Virus record (IMG/VR): IMGVR_UViG_648276671_000013
Reading direction: 5' to 3' (one strand)
DNA: 11,964 nt
Source: a virus
Taxonomy: Duplodnaviria; Heunggongvirae; Uroviricota; Caudoviricetes
The notes beneath the pieces were generated by a model. It was not told where the DNA came from. It was given only the letters and a program-made list of their open reading frames with translations, and ran no database searches. Below, piece after piece: positions 1 through 11,964 of this stretch. Positions within the stretch are counted from its first letter, which is position 1; every line of letters begins with the position of its first letter. A program made the translations under genes and the position numbers.

Positions 1-1266
1 ATGAAGCTCAGCGCCAGACAGGTCGAGACCGCAAAACCAAAAGATAAAACCTACAAAATGGCCGATGGCGGCGGTTTGTACCTTGAGGTTTCGGCCAAAG
101 GATCAAAATATTGGCGTATGAAATACAGACGCCCCTCTGACAAAAAAGAGGATCGCCTCGCTTTTGGTGTTTGGCCTACTGTGACGCTTGCTCAGGCAAG
201 AGCAAAGCGCGATGAAGCCAAAAAGCTATTAGTGCAGGGCATTGATCCAAAAGCCGAACAGAAAGAGGCTCAGGCCGAGAACTCGGGGGCATATACTTTC
301 GAAACCATTGCTCGTGAATGGCATGCCAGCAACAAGCGCTGGAGTGAAGACCATCGATCTCGCGTTCTTCGATATCTTGAGCTTTATATCTTCCCTCATA
401 TTGGTTCGTCCGATATTCGTCTACTCAAAACCAGCCACCTGTTAGCCCCAATTAAAAAAGTTGACGCTAGTGGAAAACACGACGTCGCTCAGCGCCTGCA
501 ACAGCGTGTAACGGCCATTATGCGTTATGCTGTACAGAACGATTACATTGACTCGAATCCGGCCAGTGATATGGCTGGTGCGCTATCTACAACCAAAGTG
601 CGACATTACCCTGCGTTACCTTCCTGCCGGTTACCTGAGTTTCTTGCACGTCTCGCTGCATATCGTGGTCGTGTAATGACACGGATCGCAGTCGAGCTTT
701 CCTTACTGACTTTTGTGCGTTCCAGTGAGTTACGTTTCGCGCGTTGGAATGAGTTCGACTTCGATAAAGCCCTTTGGCGCGTACCTGCAAAGCGGGAGGA
801 AATTAAGGGGGTGCGTTACTCGTATCGTGGTATGAAGATGAAAGAGGAGCATATTGTTCCGCTTAGTCGTCAGGCGATGAATTTGTTAGGCCAGTTGAAG
901 CAGATTAGTGGTGATAAGAAACTGCTTTTCCCGGGCGATCATGACGCAACTAAGGTTATGAGTGAAAACACAGTAAACAGCGCATTACGGGCGATGGGAT
1001 ATGACACTAAAACCGAAGTTTGTGGGCATGGATTTAGAACGATGGCGCGTGGTGCACTGGGGGAGTCGGGGCTATGGAGCGATGATGCGATAGAGCGTCA
1101 GTTAAGCCATACAGAACGAAATAATGTACGCGCGGCTTATATCCATACTTCTGAGCATTTGGACGAACGTCGATTGATGGTACAGTGGTGGGCTGATTAT
1201 TTGGAAGAGAATAAACTAAGAATGATAACACCATTTGATTACGGGAAAATATCTAATATAAAGTGA
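1..1266 (+). CDS. int: Tyrosine recombinase, P4-family integrase (421 aa)
   Basis: ORF starts at window position 1 with an N-terminus typical of P4-like integrases (...TAKPKDKTYKMADGGGLYLEVSAKGSKYWRMKYR...). C-terminal catalytic region has HGFRTMARGAL (His-x-x-Arg box) and VRAAYIH with a candidate catalytic Tyr. Sits next to the cargo hotspot as in P4. Confidence 0.9.
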   Translation: MKLSARQVETAKPKDKTYKMADGGGLYLEVSAKGSKYWRMKYRRPSDKKEDRLAFGVWPTVTLAQARAKRDEAKKLLVQGIDPKAEQKEAQAENSGAYTFETIAREWHASNKRWSEDHRSRVLRYLELYIFPHIGSSDIRLLKTSHLLAPIKKVDASGKHDVAQRLQQRVTAIMRYAVQNDYIDSNPASDMAGALSTTKVRHYPALPSCRLPEFLARLAAYRGRVMTRIAVELSLLTFVRSSELRFARWNEFDFDKALWRVPAKREEIKGVRYSYRGMKMKEEHIVPLSRQAMNLLGQLKQISGDKKLLFPGDHDATKVMSENTVNSALRAMGYDTKTEVCGHGFRTMARGALGESGLWSDDAIERQLSHTERNNVRAAYIHTSEHLDERRLMVQWWADYLEENKLRMITPFDYGKISNIK

Positions 1267-1291: not shown

Positions 1292-1309
1292 GGGGGGATT
1301 CCCCCCCCC
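1292..1309. terminator. G6-ATT-C9 hairpin between convergent int and cargo genes; probable bidirectional terminator
   Basis: GGGGGGA/TCCCCCC inverted repeat flanked on both sides by ACTTTT and ATAAAAAT direct repeats. Lies between the int stop (1266) and the cargo gene stop (1325). Confidence 0.35.
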
Positions 1310-1324
1310 AAACTTTTATAAAAA

Positions 1325-2217
1325 TTAAACATCTTCTCGACGTTTAGAGTTTGCGCGATATAGCGTTCTGGTTATATGGGATGTGAAATAGTCCTCATCT
1401 AAAAAATGCAATAATCTTTTTACATCTTTTCTTATTTGCGGCATTTTTATTTTTTCTAATTCACCGATTTTTTCAGTTTCTAGAACAACACCAATTTCAG
1501 CCGCTGATATTCTTAACTCAGTCACAGAGTAGTCCTCAAGTATTCTTGATTTATTAATCAAGGAAACTTTCTTTCTAATAACAGAGTCAGCAATTGTTGT
1601 TAAATCAAAACCCGGAGCTACTGAAAATTTTTCATGAGAAGAAAAACTTGTTAATTCTTCATTAGTGGCTTCTCTGAAATAAGCATCTACATCAAATATC
1701 CTGCGGAGCATATGGAAGCTTTTAAACTTTAATTCTGTACCTGCAAGAATAGCTGTTAGCTTATTGTCGATGACTATACCATGCTCAGTAGACTGGCAAA
1801 AGGTATTGCTTGCCTGAAATGGTTTTTGGAAAATTGTTCTTCTGTTATCAATAACTTGCCTTTTATCGAAGCTTTGGATTAAGGCAGTTGCAGGTTTTCC
1901 ATCCTCTTCAGGATAGCCTGAAAACAGAGCGATTATATTGAAGACTGATATTTCTTCCGGCTCCCATGGAGGGATAGTTGTGGGATTATTAATAGCATCT
2001 AATACAGCGATAACATCATCAAAGTCAGGAATGACAAAAAACTCATCTCCACTAGTGATGTAGCCACCTGAAAATTCTACGCCTTCTGTATAGCGTTCTT
2101 CAAAAAAGTTTTTTGTTCATTGAATAGCTGTGTGATTACATTTTGAGTCGGCCTGTCAGTAACAATTTTTACAATGCGTGTGCCAACTGTATTATCTGTT
2201 ATTGCAAACAATTCCAT
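1325..2217 (-). CDS. Cargo protein B, about 297 aa if one nucleotide is restored in the A6/T6 run at 2101-2116; as written it is frameshifted (N-terminal 46 codons from ATG 2217 end at TAG 2077-2079, the rest is in another frame)
   Basis: The frame of the 128-aa ORF (1325..1711) stays open for 135 more codons upstream (to 2116) with no ATG/GTG/TTG. An ATG at 2217, 8 nt after the upstream gene stop, opens a 46-codon ORF in a different frame. The two frames meet in CAAAAAAGTTTTTTG. AT-rich. Product identity unknown. Confidence 0.6.
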
Positions 2218-2225
2218 ATTTATTC

Positions 2226-2741
2226 CTATATTGCTATATATGTGTAATCAGTAAGCTTAATCAAATTAACACGATTGCCTGATGCTTTTAACAGTGGCTT
2301 TTTCGATAATATAACAAAGCTTACGCCTGTATCGTCTTCGGCTTCATAATATTTATATCCCCAAAATGATAATAATGGGTTGAAACTGTAGGAACCTGAA
2401 AAACTGATGTAAAAAAATAAACTCACAGCAAAGAAAGAAGCAATCCTAATATCCATAAATGCATCTGGACCACTGATTAAGGGAAATAAATAGGTTAAGA
2501 AATAATTTGTTATCTCCTTATCTGCTGGAGAAGCGGTAGTTAATTTTTTACTGGTTACAGAATTATATTTAATTGCGTATTTAACAATCAAAACACACAG
2601 TAAAAGTATAATTGCACACAATGATAAGTAAGCAATCATAAATTTATAGTGTTTTGATATACATGAAAGAAAAGCTAAGGTAAAAAATACCGGAGCAACT
2701 GAGCTGGCAGTAAGAAGATATTTGGCAAGCTTATTTAACAT
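2226..2741 (-). CDS. Small integral membrane protein, 171 aa, four predicted transmembrane helices (cargo protein A)
   Basis: Four hydrophobic stretches (LLTASSVAPVFFTLAFLSCI, MIAYLSLCAIILLLCVLIVKYAI, ITNYFLTYLFPLI, IRIASFFAVSLFFYISFSG). Strong SD AGGAGG 5 nt upstream of ATG. Stop is 8 nt from the start of the next gene, so operonic. Confidence 0.8.
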   Translation of the reverse strand: MLNKLAKYLLTASSVAPVFFTLAFLSCISKHYKFMIAYLSLCAIILLLCVLIVKYAIKYNSVTSKKLTTASPADKEITNYFLTYLFPLISGPDAFMDIRIASFFAVSLFFYISFSGSYSFNPLLSFWGYKYYEAEDDTGVSFVILSKKPLLKASGNRVNLIKLTDYTYIAI

Positions 2742-2914
2742 ATTATCCTCCTTATCTGCCCTAGTATCTGTATATAAAAACAGTATAACATCAATTTAAG
2801 CATCAAAGAAGATAATAAAAATCAATTAAATCATAATGATGCCTGCGTTTTTAAAGTGTGGGCTTTTGGAGGCGGGTAATGTACGCGCGTATTCCCTGGA
2901 GATTCCATTTAAAA

Positions 2915-2930
2915 GGCTACGTATGTAGCC
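2915..2930 (-). terminator. Intrinsic terminator candidate downstream of the 103-aa gene
   Basis: GGCTAC-gtat-GTAGCC hairpin; on the minus-strand RNA it is followed by UUUU. Lies 9 nt past the stop at 2939. Confidence 0.4.
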
Positions 2931-2938
2931 TCATGTAT

Positions 2939-3250
2939 TTAAGAGTACTGGCCCCAATCTCTGGCAATAAACCAGTTTGGCGTCCAGCTAACAAACTCTT
3001 GCGGATGAAAGTTTTGAGGGATTACAACTAGAGATACAATCGCTTCAGGTTGCAAACTGAGAACATGACTTTTTTTATCGCTTTCGTAATCCCAAAAATG
3101 GAATCTGTCACTTTTATCATGAGCTCTACGACTAGGACCGAAGTCCATAGGCGCAGTTAATCTTGTGATTGTCGCGTTATCTTCTTTTGAATAAAAAGTT
3201 AGCTGAATTTTTAAACAACTATGAATGGCATCAATGAATTTATCGCGCAT
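2939..3250 (-). CDS. Hypothetical protein, 103 aa, monocistronic cargo gene adjacent to cos
   Basis: ATG preceded by AAGGAG SD. Own terminator hairpin downstream, and about 197 bp of AT-rich spacer before the next gene. No recognisable motif by eye. Confidence 0.7.
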   Translation of the reverse strand: MRDKFIDAIHSCLKIQLTFYSKEDNATITRLTAPMDFGPSRRAHDKSDRFHFWDYESDKKSHVLSLQPEAIVSLVVIPQNFHPQEFVSWTPNWFIARDWGQYS

Positions 3251-3376
3251 ACGTTCTCCTTTGTAGTTACTAAATTAATATCCTCTATTGATAGATTATT
3301 GTGTGTGATCATTGCGGCATTTAATAAAACGTAATGAGTTCATTGTATTTTATTTATGTTATCAGCCTTGCGCGCA

Positions 3377-3395
3377 GTGCTTTCCCCGCCTCGCC
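3377..3395. other. cos cohesive-end site of the P2/P4 family (19 nt)
   Basis: GTGCTTTCCCCGCCTCGCC on the plus strand is the exact reverse complement of GGCGAGGCGGGGAAAGCAC, recalled as the P2/186/P4 cohesive end. Embedded in a GC-rich imperfect palindrome next to psu. Confidence 0.6.
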
Positions 3396-3495
3396 CGCCC
3401 GCTTTGCGGGGCGGTTTTAATGCAGTTGCACTGACACGCTCAGGCCGTGCCGGGAATGGCGCGGTATACAGAAAATGAGGCAGGAAAACGCATGC

Positions 3496-3529
3496 AAAGC
3501 CATGCACCTTATCGATGCATGGCTTTTTT
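3496..3529. terminator. Hairpin with flanking A/T runs; probable bidirectional terminator ending the sid-delta-psu late operon
   Basis: AAAGCCATGCA-(9 nt loop)-TGCATGGCTTT followed by a T run on the plus strand; on the minus strand the stem is followed by GCGUUUU. Lies 30 nt downstream of the psu stop. Confidence 0.5.
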
Positions 3530-3559
3530 CAGTAAAAACAGGCGGATTTTCGGGGAATT

Positions 3560-4132
3560 TTACACAGACTGACGTGATGCCAGTTGCGCACTTTTACGCG
3601 AAAAAATCATGTTCTGCGCAGGAGTGAATTTTTCACGGCTGTCATCCACCGAAGCCGCGTCAGGCCTGAATCCGATGGTCGTTAAAATGTCGCTATCCTG
3701 TGCGGAATAATTAATTTTTTCCCCCTTCGCAAGCCAGGACAGAAGGGCTTCACGCAGGGCATCTGTGGCACGCTGTATGGCACAGTTTCGGGCAATGGCC
3801 GTCAGCTCACTGTAGCCCATCAGCTCCGGTGCCAGTGCCGCCGCCAGTGCTGTGCCGTGCTGCTGCATAAAATCATTCAGCCGGTCGCGGATGCTGATGT
3901 ACTGAACGGCTTCATGCGAACGAATATAACGACCGGCGGCCTGATTCACCTGCCATTTTCTGACTTCGATAATATTGCGTAATTCGTCCAGGCGACTGAC
4001 GTTTCTGCCTTCTCCTGACAGAAGCCGCAGGTATTCCTGTTCGGCCGCTGCCAGCTCATTTTTGCGTTGCAGCCATGCTGCTTTGTTATTCTGACAGGTG
4101 TCAAAGGCCTGCTGTAAGGCTGTGCTTTCCAT
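3560..4132 (-). CDS. psu: Polarity suppression protein Psu (190 aa)
   Basis: Length and sequence (MESTALQQAFDTCQNNKAAWLQRKNELAAAEQEYLRLL...) match recalled P4 Psu. Last gene of the late operon. Confidence 0.92.
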   Translation of the reverse strand: MESTALQQAFDTCQNNKAAWLQRKNELAAAEQEYLRLLSGEGRNVSRLDELRNIIEVRKWQVNQAAGRYIRSHEAVQYISIRDRLNDFMQQHGTALAAALAPELMGYSELTAIARNCAIQRATDALREALLSWLAKGEKINYSAQDSDILTTIGFRPDAASVDDSREKFTPAQNMIFSRKSAQLASRQSV

Positions 4133-4205: not shown

Positions 4206-4706
4206 TCATTCCAGACGCAGCGAATATGATTGTGTTTTTAAGCGTACTGGCGGCAGTTCCTGTTTTTCATGCAGGCTTTCTGCCAGTTCGTCCGGCGTGA
4301 CCGGGCGGACAATGAAACGGTTGATGGTCTGAAGCGTTTTAAACACCAGACCACAGCCCGGATCCGTGCACACATAAAAACGCTCGGTGACTTCCTGAGA
4401 CAGACGCCTCGATGTTCTTGACAGTGCAAGGCCTTTACATCTCCGACAACAATATCCGGTAACAAGCATTCTTTTCGGGCGTTTCATACTGCCGGAGGCT
4501 GACGTCAGTGAATCGCGGTATCTCTGTTTGCCTGAAATGTATTCCATTCCTGAATCTTTACTGTCAGAGAAAAAGCTTTCACTCGCTTCAAATGTCGCAG
4601 AGCAATAAATATTCCGGCACTGTGCAATCATTATCTTGGTGCCATCGTCCATGAAATGTGCGCGGCGGGTGTGAGCAACATGTCCACACGACGGGCAGTA
4701 AATCAT
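4206..4706 (-). CDS. delta: Delta, Ogr-like zinc-finger late-gene transactivator (166 aa, two Ogr-like halves)
   Basis: CPSCGHVAHTRRAHFMDDGTKIMIAQCRNIYCSATFEASESF is an Ogr-type zinc finger, and a second C-x2-C ... C-x4-C half follows. Length matches P4 Delta. The ATG overlaps the sid stop as ATGA. Confidence 0.92.
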   Translation of the reverse strand: MIYCPSCGHVAHTRRAHFMDDGTKIMIAQCRNIYCSATFEASESFFSDSKDSGMEYISGKQRYRDSLTSASGSMKRPKRMLVTGYCCRRCKGLALSRTSRRLSQEVTERFYVCTDPGCGLVFKTLQTINRFIVRPVTPDELAESLHEKQELPPVRLKTQSYSLRLE

Positions 4707-5437
4707 GACAGCAGTCCTCTGGCCTTAAGCTCTGCACCCTGCTGGTCTATTTTGTCCTGCCACACCTTGCGCTGTGCCGGTGTGCCTGCCACCTCATAAT
4801 CCATGTGCGGGAGTGTTGCCGCTGACAGTCCGGTCAGCCGGAGAACCGGCTCGCCGGTGAGGCTGATTTGCATCTGTTTAATTTTCTGTTCCAGCGATGA
4901 TTTCACCTGCTGCATGACAGCTTTATCGGGTGCGACGTAGCCCTGATGGCCGGTGGTGTTGGCGAGCGGATTTTCCTGTACCAGGATACTCAGATGCATT
5001 GCCCGGACAAGCGCCTCACAGGTTTCATTCAGGGCGTGTTCCAGCTCATGCTCTGCATACAGACTCAGAAGGTGATGATGTGCCTTCCGGTAGGCGGTGG
5101 CCGTGCTGTCACACGCCCCTTTCAGGCGTTCACGTTCGAAATTCAGCACCACGGCCAGATTGTCATATTCCTGTACCAGCTCCCGGCGTGCCACGCGCTC
5201 AATATGGCGCTGTTTCAGCTCATCGCTCAGGACACCACCGGCTGCACGAAAGGCCGTGCGCCAGTCGTCAGCGTCGTTTCCGTCGGCCTGCACCAGCGCA
5301 TTTTTTTCCTGCTCTGCCCGTTCAATGGCCGCGACGGTCTCATCCATCAGGCGGGCGTTCTCAAGATGGGCGGCTCTGGCCTTTTCCAGTTGTGCCAGTG
5401 CGGGTTGCAGATATTCAGGGATAGTGTGGTCAGACAT
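4703..5437 (-). CDS. sid: Capsid size determination protein Sid (244 aa from the second ATG)
   Basis: The ORF track starts at 5455, but a GAGGAG SD lies between the two ATGs and the 5437 start gives the 244 aa recalled for P4 Sid (MSDHTIPEYLQPALAQLEK...). Confidence 0.9.
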   Translation of the reverse strand: MSDHTIPEYLQPALAQLEKARAAHLENARLMDETVAAIERAEQEKNALVQADGNDADDWRTAFRAAGGVLSDELKQRHIERVARRELVQEYDNLAVVLNFERERLKGACDSTATAYRKAHHHLLSLYAEHELEHALNETCEALVRAMHLSILVQENPLANTTGHQGYVAPDKAVMQQVKSSLEQKIKQMQISLTGEPVLRLTGLSAATLPHMDYEVAGTPAQRKVWQDKIDQQGAELKARGLLS

Positions 5438-5509
5438 TTTCCGGCTCCTCGTCACTTCAGGTTAAGAAAATTGTGACGTACACCGGACAACAACACGACG
5501 CATTGCAGA

Positions 5510-5527
5510 TGTGCCAGCCCTGACACA
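5510..5527 (-). promoter_or_regulatory. Psid late promoter activator site (TGT-N12-ACA dyad for Delta/Ogr-type activators)
   Basis: TGTGCCAGCCCTGACACA is an exact TGT-N12-ACA, centred about 81 nt upstream of the sid ATG, which fits the usual -55 position in P2/P4 late promoters. Confidence 0.5.
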
Positions 5528-5605
5528 GGAGACTCATCCTCAGACCGGCAAGCCAGGAAAAGGTCGCAGGAAAAACCGGCTTACTGTTTGTTTTTTTATA
5601 TTTTA

Positions 5606-8040: not shown

Positions 8041-10374
8041 ATGAAAATGAACGTAACCGCCACCGTCAGCCATGCGCTCGGCCACTGGCCGCGTATTCTC
8101 CCGGCGCTGGGGATTCAGGTGCTGAAAAACCGTCATCAGCCCTGTCCGGTCTGTGGCGGGAGTGACCGCTTCCGTTTTGATGACAGGGAGGGGCGCGGCA
8201 CCTGGTACTGCAATCAGTGTGGTGCCGGTGACGGCCTGAAACTGGTTGAAAAGGTGTTTGGTGTCTCCCCGTCCGACGCGGCCGCAAAGGTGGCTGCCGT
8301 GACCGGCAGCCTGCCCCCGGCTGACCCGGCAGTGACGGCTGCCGCCGGTGCTGAAACAGACGCTGCCCGGAAGAACGCCGCCGCACTGGCACAAACCCTG
8401 ATGGCGAAAACCCGTACCGGAACCGGTAACGCCTACCTGACCCGCAAGGGCTTTCCCGGCCGGGAATGCCGGATGCTGACCGGCACACACAGAGCCGGTG
8501 GCGTGAGCTGGCGCGCCGGTGACCTTGTGGTGCCACTGTATGACGACAGCGGCGAACTGGTTAACCTTCAGTTAATCAGCGCTGACGGCCGTAAGCGCAC
8601 CCTGAAAGGCGGGCAGGTCAGGGGCACCTGTCACATCCTTGAAGGACAGAATCAGGCCGGAAAACGTCTGTGGATAGCGGAGGGATACGCGACCGCACTT
8701 ACCGTACATCACCTGACCGGTGAAACGGTGATGGTGGCGCTTTCTTCCGTGAACCTCCTTTCTCTGGCCAGCCTTGCCCGGCAGAAGCATCCGGCCTGTC
8801 AGATTGTCCTTGCCGCAGACCGTGACCTCAGCGGTGACGGCCAGAAAAAAGCCGCCGCAGCCGCAGATGCGTGTGAAGGTGTTGTTGCCCTGCCGCCGGT
8901 CTTCGGTGACTGGAATGATGCCTTCACGCAGTACGGCGGGGAAGCCACCCGTAAGGCCATTTACGATGCCATCCGGCCACCGGCTGAAAGCCCGTTCGAC
9001 ACCATGAGCGAAGCGGAGTTTTCCGCCATGAGTACCAGCGAAAAGGCCATGCGTATCTATGAGCATTACGGCGAGGCGCTCGCGGTCGATGCCAACGGCC
9101 AGCTTCTGTCCCGTTATGAAAATGGTGTCTGGAAGGTGCTGCCACCACAGGACTTTGCCCGGGATGTGGCCGGGCTGTTTCAGCGGCTGCGTGCGCCGTT
9201 CTCCTCCGGGAAGGTGGCCTCCGTGGTGGACACCCTGAAGCTGATTATTCCGCAGCAGGAAGCCCCCTCCCGCCGCCTGATTGGCTTTCGTAACGGCGTG
9301 CTCGACACGCAGAACGGCACGTTCCACCCGCACAGTCCGTCACACTGGATGCGCACCCTGTGCGATGTGGATTTCACCCCGCCGGTGGACGGTGAAACGC
9401 TGGAAACCCACGCTCCCGCGTTCTGGCGCTGGCTTGACCGTGCCGCCGGTGGCCGTGCGGAAAAACGCGACGTGATTCTGGCCGCACTGTTTATGGTGCT
9501 GGCAAACCGCTACGACTGGCAGCTCTTTCTGGAGGTGACCGGTCCCGGCGGCAGCGGCAAAAGTATCATGGCCGAAATAGCCACCCTGCTGGCCGGGGAG
9601 GATAACGCCACGTCGGCCACCATTGAGACGCTGGAATCCCCGCGTGAACGTGCCGCGTTAACTGGCTTCTCACTGATACGCCTGCCGGACCAGGAAAAAT
9701 GGAGCGGCGACGGTGCCGGACTCAAGGCCATCACCGGCGGCGATGCGGTGTCCGTTGACCCGAAATACCGGGATGCATACTCCACGCATATCCCGGCGGT
9801 GATTCTGGCCGTGAACAATAACCCGATGCGCTTCACCGACCGCAGCGGCGGCGTGTCACGCCGGCGGGTGATTATTCACTTCCCGGAACAGATAGCCCCG
9901 CAGGAGCGCGACCCGCAGCTTAAGGACAAAATCACCCACGAGCTGGCGGTCATCGTGCGTCACCTGATGCAGAAGTTCAGCGACCCGATGCTCGCCCGGT
10001 CACTGCTTCAGTCCCAGCAGAACTCAGACGAGGCGCTGAACATCAAACGGGATGCCGACCCGACGTTTGATTTTATCGGCTATCTGGAAACCCTGCCGCA
10101 GACCAGCGGCATGTATATGGGGAACGCCAGTATCATCCCGCGCAATTACCGTAAATACCTCTATCACGCCTATCTGGCCTACATGGAGGCAAACGGCTAC
10201 CGGAATGTACTCAGTCTGAAAATGTTCGGGCTGGGGCTGCCGGTGATGCTGAAGGAATACGGACTGAATTACGAGAAGCGCCATACCAAACAGGGGATAC
10301 AGACCAACCTGACGCTGAAAGAGGAAAGCTACGGCGACTGGCTGCCAAAATGTGAAGACCCTGCAACAACCTGA
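8041..10374 (+). CDS. alpha: Alpha protein: bifunctional DNA primase-helicase (777 aa)
   Basis: N-terminal primase zinc finger (CPVCGGSDRFRFDDREGRGTWYCNQCG), central TOPRIM-like region, C-terminal Walker A (GPGGSGKS) of a D5/SF3-type helicase. Length equals P4 Alpha. Confidence 0.95.
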   Translation: MKMNVTATVSHALGHWPRILPALGIQVLKNRHQPCPVCGGSDRFRFDDREGRGTWYCNQCGAGDGLKLVEKVFGVSPSDAAAKVAAVTGSLPPADPAVTAAAGAETDAARKNAAALAQTLMAKTRTGTGNAYLTRKGFPGRECRMLTGTHRAGGVSWRAGDLVVPLYDDSGELVNLQLISADGRKRTLKGGQVRGTCHILEGQNQAGKRLWIAEGYATALTVHHLTGETVMVALSSVNLLSLASLARQKHPACQIVLAADRDLSGDGQKKAAAAADACEGVVALPPVFGDWNDAFTQYGGEATRKAIYDAIRPPAESPFDTMSEAEFSAMSTSEKAMRIYEHYGEALAVDANGQLLSRYENGVWKVLPPQDFARDVAGLFQRLRAPFSSGKVASVVDTLKLIIPQQEAPSRRLIGFRNGVLDTQNGTFHPHSPSHWMRTLCDVDFTPPVDGETLETHAPAFWRWLDRAAGGRAEKRDVILAALFMVLANRYDWQLFLEVTGPGGSGKSIMAEIATLLAGEDNATSATIETLESPRERAALTGFSLIRLPDQEKWSGDGAGLKAITGGDAVSVDPKYRDAYSTHIPAVILAVNNNPMRFTDRSGGVSRRRVIIHFPEQIAPQERDPQLKDKITHELAVIVRHLMQKFSDPMLARSLLQSQQNSDEALNIKRDADPTFDFIGYLETLPQTSGMYMGNASIIPRNYRKYLYHAYLAYMEANGYRNVLSLKMFGLGLPVMLKEYGLNYEKRHTKQGIQTNLTLKEESYGDWLPKCEDPATT

Positions 10375-10390
10375 CCCTCATGACTCATCT

Positions 10391-10415
10391 GACCGGCATC
10401 TGCCGGTCTTTTTTT
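10391..10415 (+). terminator. Rho-independent terminator after alpha
   Basis: GACCGGCA-tc-TGCCGGTC stem followed by T7, 17 nt after the alpha stop. Confidence 0.7.
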
Positions 10416-10430
10416 ATCCCTGAATTCCCC

Positions 10431-10710
10431 GAAGGTGAACAATCCACTGTTCACCCTTCACCGTATATTCACCTGTTATCACACTGAAATTAAAAGAGAA
10501 AAACGAAAGGTGAACAGTGTGAACAATCAAATCAAAAAAAACTTTTTTTCTCCCTGTGTGATTTTCAGTACGGGGGATTAATCACCGGTATGAGTCACAC
10601 CGGCAGAATGCCGGAGGTGAAGAATCGAATGTTCACCCTTCACCCATTATTCACCACCTATCATACTGAAATAAAAGGAGAAAAAAGAAAGGTGAACAGT
10701 GTGAACAGTT
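10431..10710. repeat. crr-like region: two roughly 100-bp direct repeats each carrying TGTTCACC/GGTGAACA iterons
   Basis: Repeat 1 (about 10431-10530) and repeat 2 (about 10612-10710) share GGTGAA...TGTTCACCCTTCACC...ATTCACC...ACTGAAAT(T/A)AAAAG(A/G)AGAAAAA(C/A)GAAAGGTGAACAGTGTGAACA. Matches the recalled P4 crr organisation. Confidence 0.55.
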
Positions 10711-10920
10711 CTTTCGAAAAAAAAATTTTTATGTGGATAAAAGATGCACTGGTTTGGATCCGGGCTACGGATCCAAACTTACTGATTAAAAATTATTTAA
10801 CTTTCCGATTTATTGATGGGCTGAAAATAGATTGGTCAGAAAAACAGTGGGGGCACAAAAGGGGGCATATTTCATTGTTGTGTTTTATTATTTGTTTTTT
10901 ATCATTAACTTATTTTAATG

Positions 10921-10942
10921 TTTGAGTCCGGCCTTCGCACCA
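10921..10942 (+). other. att core remnant: degenerate copy of a tRNA-Leu (leuX-type) 3' end
   Basis: TTTGAGTCCGGCCTTCGCACCA resembles the recalled tRNA-Leu 3' end TTCGAGTCCGGCCTTCGGCACCA with one substitution and one missing G. No tRNA body upstream (AT-rich), so this is a core repeat, not a tRNA gene. Confidence 0.5.
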
Positions 10943-10955
10943 AAAGTATGTAAAT

Positions 10956-10979
10956 AGACCTCAACTGAGGTCTTTTTTT
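10956..10979 (+). terminator. Rho-independent terminator just downstream of the att core
   Basis: AGACCTC-aact-GAGGTCT followed by T7; positioned like a tRNA gene terminator. Confidence 0.55.
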
Positions 10980-11142
10980 ATGCCTGAAATCCGCACCACG
11001 CAAGGCTTTTCCAGCTTTTCTCCTCAACTGAAGTCAACCTGACTCAACCCACATCAACAGGCTTGTGAGTATACTAATAAGCATATTTGCCGATTCGATA
11101 TTGCTTGTATACTCACGAGATACCAATGGAAGGAAGACCATT

Positions 11143-11964
11143 ATTGCCCTAACGGATACTAAAGTTCGTTCTGTGAAGTCAGAGGAGAAAGAGTATTCAC
11201 TTGTTGACGGCGACGGCATGTCTTTACTTGTAAAACCTGGCGGTTCAAAGTATTGGTGATTTCGTTTCCGTTCTGGTGGTAAACAACATTTGATGGCGTT
11301 CGGCGTTTACCCGGATGTTTCGCTGGCGGATGCGCGGAAGAAAAGGGAAGAGGCCAGAAAGCTGGTAGCTGCTGGTATCGATCCTCGTGAGCATAAACGT
11401 GCTGTGAAAGAAGAGCAGGCGAAAGAGATTATTACTTTCGAGAAGGTTGCCAAATAGTGGCTCGTGACCAACCAAAAATGGTCGGAATATCATGCTAATC
11501 GTCTAAAAAGAGCCTGGAGGAGAATATCTTCCCGGCAATTGGTGCTCGTAATATTGCTGAACTGGGCACCCGCGATCTGTTAATTCCCATTAAAGCTGTG
11601 GAGAAATCCGGACGTCTTGAAGTGGCTCCTTCAACAGCGCACCACGGCCATCATGCGTTATGCAGTGCAAAGCGGGTTAATTGATTACAATCCGGCGCAA
11701 GAGATGGCGGGGGCGGTTGCTTCCAGTAATCGACAACATCGTCCGGCGCTGGAATTAAATCGCATCCCTGAGTTGCTTGAGAAAATAGACAGCTACACCG
11801 GCAGGCCGCTAACCCGCTGGGCAACGGAACTCACTCTACTTATCTTCATCCGCTCCAGTGAACTGCGTTTTGCTCGCTGGTCAGAAATCGATTTTGAAAC
11901 GTCAATGTGGACCATCCCTCTTGATGGGCATTGCAGTAAGCTGAGGGTTGGACTGGTATTGTAA
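11143..11964 (+). pseudogene. Second P4-family integrase, disrupted (start codon lost, two in-frame stops, at least two frameshifts); continues to the window edge
   Basis: Three reading frames together spell an integrase paralogous to int at 1-1266 (IALTDTKVRS...GGSKYW*FRFRSGGKQHLMAFGVYPDVSLADARKKREEARKLVAAGIDP...VAK*WLVTNQKW...TTAIMRYAVQSGLIDYNPAQEMAG...ELRFARWSEIDFETSMWTIP). Confidence 0.8.

Follow-up and report, generated by a model that had tools for sequence, protein, structure and literature searches.

What is the small gene that adjoins the cohesive-end site (cos) of a P4-like satellite, and does it belong to the membrane-protein operon that follows it? The question is raised by positions 2,742 to 3,376 of a viral DNA of 11,964 nucleotides (Caudoviricetes; IMG/VR record IMGVR_UViG_648276671_000013), which in its full length is referred to here as the window. 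An earlier note, made from the sequence alone, had described a monocistronic gene for a 103-amino-acid protein with no recognisable motif, and had suggested a regulator, a third component of the neighbouring operon, or an independent small defence or anti-defence factor. That operon was identified by PADLOC as Kiwa (KwaA/KwaB). Our analysis indicates, with high confidence, that the gene encodes a stand-alone, divergent WYL domain without helix-turn-helix (HTH), WCX or enzymatic domain, and that it is the WYL gene of the published WYL-Kiwa cassette. The explanation that we favour as a whole, a minimal WYL domain serving as a portable sensing accessory of defence modules, has in our estimate a probability of about 0.5.

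The encoded protein is identical to WP_001205027. With respect to sequence families, the impression that it carries no recognisable motif was accurate: scans with the hidden Markov models (HMMs) of Pfam, PADLOC, NCBIfam and PHROGs gave no match at E <= 1, and a profile search of PDB sequences returned a chance match only (E 1.4). Among 47 family members, PF13280 was the commonest Pfam match, yet a weak one (5/47, best E 0.021). At the level of the fold, the impression did not hold. An AlphaFold2 model built on the family alignment (mean predicted local distance difference test score (pLDDT) 88, predicted template modelling score 0.76) confidently shows one N-terminal helix and five strands, which make up a Sm-like barrel in residues ~1-80 and are followed by a conserved Trp-rich tail in residues ~81-103 (F81, P83, W93, R97, W99). 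The top structural matches of this model are BrxR, CapW, DriD and PafBC, and by its N-terminal helix and five-strand barrel it lies closest to solved WYL domains. Neither of the domains that accompany WYL in these matches was found: a single helix precedes the barrel and no HTH family matches the 103 residues, which leaves no winged-helix or HTH domain, and the ~25 residues past the barrel hold no WCX dimerisation domain.

An N-terminal helix and a five-strand bent barrel also occur in Hfq/Sm-like proteins and in Rof (YaeO). The protein might accordingly be a generic Sm/Hfq-like RNA chaperone, or a Rof/YaeO-like Rho inhibitor that complements the neighbouring psu gene. These proteins reach lower structural scores, however, and share no family sequence match with the window protein, which has an extra conserved C-terminal tail; the combination of Sm1/Sm2 motifs with a family HMM match that marks Hfq/Sm members was not found in it. 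We consider a role of this kind very improbable.

The WYL gene belongs to a broad family. A search of 5.8 billion proteins yielded 91 homologues with 43-99% identity, nearly all of them 103-110 amino acids long, and a profile search of 1.84 billion cluster representatives gave 401 clusters (counted at 50% identity) at E <= 0.001 and 251 at E <= 1e-10. Among the best 150 of the 401 representatives, the median length is 108 amino acids and the longest protein has 190, most measuring ~100-115; each has one matched stretch that covers the family profile, and fusions to other domains were not seen among them. Scanning one genome per species produced 92 loci, which are spread over Gammaproteobacteria, Bacteroidota, Cyanobacteria, Actinobacteriota, Firmicutes and Acidobacteriota and extend to Armatimonadota, Saccharibacteria, other candidate phyla and two archaeal assemblies. 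Between very distant phyla, 45-65% identity is kept. We reject a P4 backbone or packaging gene, since the family spans many phyla in non-P4 contexts.

Conservation within the protein is equally evident. Seventeen positions are invariant in the 47-sequence family alignment, and over 114 representatives the best-conserved residues are F5 and, each conserved at >=81%, R30, P34, D36, F81, P83, W93, R97 and W99. Two Escherichia coli alleles differ by 17 synonymous versus 5 non-synonymous substitutions, a ratio of non-synonymous to synonymous rates (dN/dS) of ~0.07, from which we judge the gene to be under purifying selection. The four empty HMM libraries and the frameshift in the adjacent kwaB of the window could suggest a chance open reading frame (ORF) or a decaying, functionless remnant; against 401 clusters with conserved length and motifs, a dN/dS of 0.07 and a confident fold, this explanation is refuted by the conservation data.

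The surroundings of the gene in other genomes confirmed the mobile, defence-rich context that had been proposed: homologues are not confined to unrelated non-mobile contexts, and the ORF is conserved. Gene calls for the neighbourhoods come from a naive ORF finder, and their annotation is partial. Outside satellites, the strongest recurrent partner is an OLD-type protein of ~616 amino acids with an AAA_15 and an OLD-like TOPRIM domain (PADLOC 'Old' down to 5e-56), which occurs in 21 of 82 loci. In 16 of them it shares the strand of the WYL gene, before or after which it is encoded at a distance of <=54 bp. These loci were found in Shewanella, Bacteriovoracaceae, Acidobacteriota, Armatimonadota, Actinobacteriota, Firmicutes and Aminicenantes, at least seven phyla, and the WYL-OLD pair looks, judged by gene order, like an undescribed two-gene module. 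Tight same-strand pairs (2-54 bp, either order) are found in loci L021, L026, L032, L034, L036, L042, L051, L062, L064, L069, L071, L072, L078 and L079, in most of which the pair lies at ~10000-12200.

Other ATPase genes are found in the same position. PDC-S06 is the neighbour in Photobacterium (7e-268) and on an Arcobacter plasmid (4e-265), where the two genes overlap by 4 bp, and weaker PDC-S06-like neighbours occur in Saccharibacteria; LmuB-like and Ppl-like proteins and, in three loci, a third ATPase cluster were also seen. Taken together, these ATPases adjoin the WYL gene in ~28 of 80 species-level loci. The remaining immediate neighbours include DISARM DrmD, a type I methyltransferase, Mrr nucleases, SLATT_5, AbiE-family proteins and an N6/N4 methyltransferase. 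In single loci the neighbour is Hsp70, AraC or a flavodoxin-like protein, a setting without a defensive look.

Two further contexts were observed. A class II ribonucleotide reductase adjoins the WYL gene in three unrelated genomes from different phyla (L106, 4352-8961; L041, 9905-13898; L075, 6938-11590), and in L106 and L075 the WYL gene stands between this reductase and a dCTP deaminase-like gene, which hints at a tie to deoxynucleotide metabolism rather than defence in some lineages. The E. coli plasmids L097 (2779 bp), L099 (2885 bp) and L098 (4263 bp) carry a homologue with 45-50% identity, followed by an unannotated protein of 237 (or 172) amino acids that could be a Rep protein or a partner. 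Neither the 237-amino-acid plasmid protein (Pfam, PADLOC) nor a 302-amino-acid Pantoea neighbour had a family match.

In related P4-like satellites of Enterobacterales, the WYL gene stays cos-proximal in the psu/delta orientation while other hotspot content changes. Yersinia P4-like elements have a 66%-identical copy, indexed in 111 blocks of the collection, that is followed by a convergent DUF2971 protein (PADLOC PDC-S31, 4e-47; L083-L086, 7379-8194). The gene likewise follows delta in Serratia ficaria, and in the P4-like element of L104/L105 a 71%-identical copy is the sole gene between psu/cos and int. The latter arrangement fits the idea of an independent small factor riding in the hotspot, that is, a self-contained module of one gene, carried by P4-like satellites and other mobile elements, that would act in defence, anti-defence or helper-satellite interplay independently of adjacent cargo. 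The different convergent neighbours in Yersinia, the gene's own Shine-Dalgarno sequence, hairpin and spacer, and the homologues on 2.8-4.3-kb E. coli plasmids are in keeping with this idea. However, no effector activity is obvious in a bare ligand-binding barrel, and the close linkage on one strand with OLD, PDC-S06 and other ABC/SMC-type ATPase genes, seen across phyla, speaks for a partner; we hold full autonomy to be rather unlikely. A phage anti-defence origin was set aside, because tblastn found no homologue in 50,697 phage genomes and viral fold matches in BFVD were weak.

The gene and its cassette have been described before. Rousset et al. (2022; PMC9122126, Table S1B) list 'WYL/DUF4868' as system 14 with 93 occurrences, and the first protein of this system is exactly our 103-amino-acid sequence (WP_001205027), annotated as a WYL domain (PF13280.8). 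The cassette was cloned with its native promoter from E. coli TA280 into plasmid pFR79, 'WYL-Kiwa', and besides the one-line domain note the authors guess that the gene 'perhaps regulates the system' (PMC9122126). In the Domainator paper, this hotspot type goes under the name 'Kiwa' and has three coding sequences (PMC11754643). No work devoted to the protein itself came up when the literature was searched for 'WYL-Kiwa' in main texts and for WYL together with OLD nucleases. The intact cassette has all three listed proteins identical, in the order cos, WYL gene, KwaA, KwaB, int. In the window, this set and order recur between cos/psu and int, with the WYL protein and KwaA identical to Table S1B and kwaB differing by a 1-bp frameshift.

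Is the gene then a part of Kiwa? The full WYL gene occurs in 32 of 5426 complete E. coli genomes, and the arrangement WYL-KwaA-KwaB was seen in all five inspected cassettes (H1, H2, H3, H61 and the window), among them a 93%-identical allele whose element has decayed. In islands of Shiga toxin-producing E. coli near subAB, a 73-nucleotide remnant of the WYL 3' end is still present ahead of eroded copies of Kiwa (L093, ~5520-5592; L092, 5001-5073), which shows that all three genes had travelled together as one block before the erosion. Another 46 E. coli genomes carry more distant Kiwa operons (60-80% identity); we inspected two, which lie in a lambdoid prophage and in an integrative element, and neither has the WYL gene. 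At none of the 80 species-level loci of the WYL gene did phmmer detect KwaA or KwaB. The gene does not accompany KwaA and KwaB wherever Kiwa occurs, and their pairing characterises a single cassette lineage rather than Kiwa itself. Co-occurrence with the downstream operon, which the earlier note had proposed to check, is thus seen in the E. coli cassettes and not in the wider family, and the suggestion of a third component finds no support as a general statement.

These data also bear on the guess that the gene regulates Kiwa. In this scenario, a BrxR/CapW-like transcriptional regulator would repress or activate kwaAB until a signal is sensed. WYL regulators are found upstream of many defence systems, and the best structural matches of our model are BrxR, CapW, DriD and PafBC; moreover, kwaA is the next gene downstream and is read from the same strand, a layout that is retained in the 93%-identical allele and of which the 73-nucleotide remnants upstream of decayed Kiwa copies are a trace. 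In contrast to these HTH-WYL-WCX factors, however, the window protein has neither a winged HTH nor a WCX domain, only the 25-residue Trp-rich tail, and is about one third of their size; it therefore cannot alone be a DNA-bound repressor or activator. Barrel and tail use up all 103 amino acids, which leaves no room for another DNA-binding domain, and none of the 150 representatives is fused to one. Published Kiwa defence requires both KwaA and KwaB, in a study that never mentions the WYL gene (bioRxiv 10.1101/2023.02.26.530102), and both the other E. coli Kiwa operons that we inspected and the 80 Kiwa-free loci speak against a dedicated Kiwa regulator. The WYL fold does place the protein in a sensor or regulator class, as one of the suggestions in the earlier note would have it, but a classical transcription-factor role is unlikely because the DNA-binding domain is absent, and we find a regulator of the Kiwa operon quite improbable.

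In PafBC, DriD, CapW/BrxR and WYL1, a Sm-like barrel of this type acts as a sensor of single-stranded nucleic acid. PafBC responds to single-stranded DNA, and WYL1, which has an N-terminal ribbon-helix-helix and a dimerisation region, binds single-stranded RNA and boosts Cas13d without a transcription-factor role. Literature and PDB titles state that the WYL domains of DriD and CapW bind single-stranded DNA. WYL1, an accessory of type VI-D CRISPR-Cas13d (PDB 6oaw), has 385 residues and 11% identity to the window protein, and its partner is Cas13d, whereas the partners in the window family are OLD, ABC/SMC-type ATPases or Kiwa. Small phage 'WYL domain-containing' proteins in BFVD (76-98 amino acids) resemble the window protein in size and in standing alone, but the structural matches are weak and the similarity is not significant (Foldseek E >= 0.004; named WYL entries E >= 0.057).

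We propose that the bare WYL barrel is a portable sensing accessory of defence modules. The barrel would recognise a ligand by which infection or DNA damage is signalled, most probably single-stranded DNA or another nucleic-acid or nucleotide species, and the signal would be relayed by protein-protein contact and not by promoter binding. The conserved residues R30, P34 and D36 are candidates, and only candidates, for the ligand pocket, and the Trp-rich tail is a candidate partner interface; it combines low model confidence with top conservation, as is typical of a segment that becomes ordered on binding. This mechanism of nucleic-acid or nucleotide sensing with direct partner contact is tentative and in our estimate less likely than not; what is bound, how a partner is contacted and whether Kiwa is influenced are inferred. 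A bolder version, in which the family is an exchangeable sensor subunit that binds single-stranded DNA or nucleotides and docks with its Trp-rich tail onto defence proteins of the ABC/SMC-type ATPase class (OLD-type nucleases, PDC-S06 and perhaps KwaB), appears doubtful to us. Kiwa's published biology involves RecBCD and Gam, as does that of P2 Old; a link between Kiwa and Old on this basis is speculative.

Several observations weigh against the sensing accessory that we favour. The window protein does not reach the HMM threshold of PF13280, the last ~20 residues of the model, which include much of the proposed interface, have a pLDDT of 55-60, and the protein is slightly acidic (isoelectric point 6.5), unlike generic nucleic-acid binders. 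The naive ORF calls and partial annotation limit what the neighbourhoods can tell. A defence-accessory role is, moreover, not universal, because the gene also occurs as sole hotspot cargo, on 2.8-kb plasmids and beside housekeeping-looking neighbours (class II ribonucleotide reductase, dCTP deaminase-like protein, Hsp70, AraC). Finally, WYL-Kiwa is listed in Table S2B, 'additional tested systems', and absent from Table S2A, 'validated defense systems' (PMC9122126), and the activity of the cassette is for this reason unproven.

The local signals of the gene were in large part as first read (Table 1). The ORF adjoins cos, its ATG being 126 bp from the cos core; the Shine-Dalgarno sequence AAGGAG lies 5 nucleotides before the ATG and is kept in the E. 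coli S1 allele; and a spacer of 197 bp precedes the next gene. The 19-mer GGCGAGGCGGGGAAAGCAC is an exact match to the P2/P4 cohesive-end core. For P2/P4 cos, PMC9122126 cites Ziermann and Calendar 1990.

The terminator, in turn, proved less strong than had been claimed. The hairpin itself is stable: its core GGCTAC/GTAGCC (2930-2925 and 2920-2915) begins 7-9 nucleotides past the stop and extends to 8 pairs, and the RNA of 51 nucleotides folds with -13.8 kcal/mol (z = -3.2; 0/200 shuffles fold as well). In the S1 allele the stem is retained and the loop is altered. The U-tract behind it, UUUU followed by AAAU, is weaker than described; the minus-strand tail narrowly fails the rule of the consensus terminator scan, which accepts this hairpin on the plus strand only. 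We regard it as a plausible, though not a strong, intrinsic terminator of the WYL gene.

Monocistronic transcription is plausible and not proven, because a sigma-70 consensus scan of the minus strand between cos and the WYL ATG found no promoter; read-through into the WYL gene from the sid-delta-psu operon across cos is possible. Two GC-rich hairpins with T-runs on the plus strand, one flanking cos (3395-3414) and one after psu (3500-3535), may be bidirectional terminators that restrict such read-through from psu. Towards kwaA, the ~95 bp of the spacer nearest this gene are conserved between the alleles, and the distal half has diverged with insertions and deletions. The conserved part includes the element TGTTATACT (TGnTATACT, 2790-2782), which lies 41 nucleotides 5' of the kwaA ATG, is kept as TGCTATACT in the 93%-identical E. 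coli S1 allele and could be the extended -10 of a kwaA or kwaAB promoter; a two-hexamer promoter scan did not pick it up. The hairpin, the 197-bp spacer and this conserved candidate support the view that the WYL gene is a transcription unit separate from kwaAB.

Table 1. Coordinates of the WYL gene, its signals and the neighbouring features in the window
Feature	Position	Strand	Basis or remark
P4-type integrase gene	1..1266	+	Other border of the hotspot
kwaB, frameshifted by 1-bp deletion	1325..2217	-	PADLOC KwaB matches to two ORF fragments; alignment to locus L001
KwaA, Kiwa membrane protein	2226..2741	-	PADLOC KwaA 1.6e-76
Spacer WYL gene / kwaA, 197 bp	2742..2938		kwaA ATG at 2741
Candidate extended -10 TGTTATACT for kwaAB	2782..2790	-	Direct reading; inferred only
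Hairpin after WYL stop	2905..2932	-	Stems 2932-2925 / 2920-2913, loop AUAC, then UUAAAUGG; scan and RNA fold
WYL-domain gene, 103 codons, ATG start	2939..3250	-	Protein identical to WP_001205027
Shine-Dalgarno AAGGAG, 5 nucleotides 5' of ATG (3250-3248)	3256..3261	-	Read directly; kept in E. coli S1 allele
P2/P4 cos core, 19 nucleotides, GGCGAGGCGGGGAAAGCAC	3377..3395	-	Exact match; 0/200 shuffles match
psu, P4 backbone gene, far side of cos	3560..4132	-	Pfam Psu 7e-88
166-amino-acid ORF	4206..4706	-	delta-like by position; counterpart in locus L001 annotated as ogr/Delta-like zinc-finger protein
250-amino-acid ORF	4703..5455	-	sid-like by position
Primase-helicase gene	8041..10374

The window as a whole is a P4-like satellite, and what separates psu/cos from int in it is the stretch that Rousset et al. 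2022 (PMC9122126) describe as a defence hotspot. An AT-rich variable region spans ~1300-3330, with a GC content of 0.30-0.40 versus 0.50-0.64 elsewhere. Within it, kwaB is broken into ORF fragments at 2077-2217 and 1325-1711, where intact copies have 894 bp (297 amino acids). One A is missing from an A7 run near 2096-2101 when compared with intact E. coli copies, and kwaB of E. coli strain A10 has the same shortened length; the window copy is either a pseudogene or the product of a homopolymer run miscalled in sequencing. Because of the frameshift in kwaB, this copy of Kiwa is probably inactive. Past the primase-helicase gene, a second, partial integrase-like ORF lies at the right end of the window (11617-11964, plus strand) and may belong to a tandem or remnant integrative element; between the two, an AT-rich stretch (~10400-11000) contains an ORF of 111 amino acids.

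No predicted sensor in prokaryotic immunity is more common than the WYL domain, and to our knowledge all characterised WYL domains are wired to a DNA-binding or other output domain within the same polypeptide. Since the WYL annotation and the cassette had already been published, the core identification of the window gene is not new: it is the known WYL gene of the WYL-Kiwa cassette, and it should not be counted as a Kiwa component. What our analysis adds is the structural confirmation of the WYL fold, the strictly HTH-less architecture, the breadth of the family and the lack of a general link to Kiwa, together with the recurrent pairing of WYL with OLD and with ABC/SMC-type ATPases and the cos-proximal persistence of the gene during cargo swap. 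A bare WYL barrel that is repeatedly operon-coupled to OLD/ABC/SMC ATPase genes would show a sensor acting in trans, and would offer a handle on the activation of OLD-family nucleases, PDC-S06 and possibly Kiwa. If the family were indeed an exchangeable sensor subunit, this would amount to a 'WYL-OLD' defence system of two genes that has so far gone unrecognised in at least seven phyla, and would explain why a subset of P4-like satellites keeps a cos-proximal WYL gene despite swaps of the downstream cargo.
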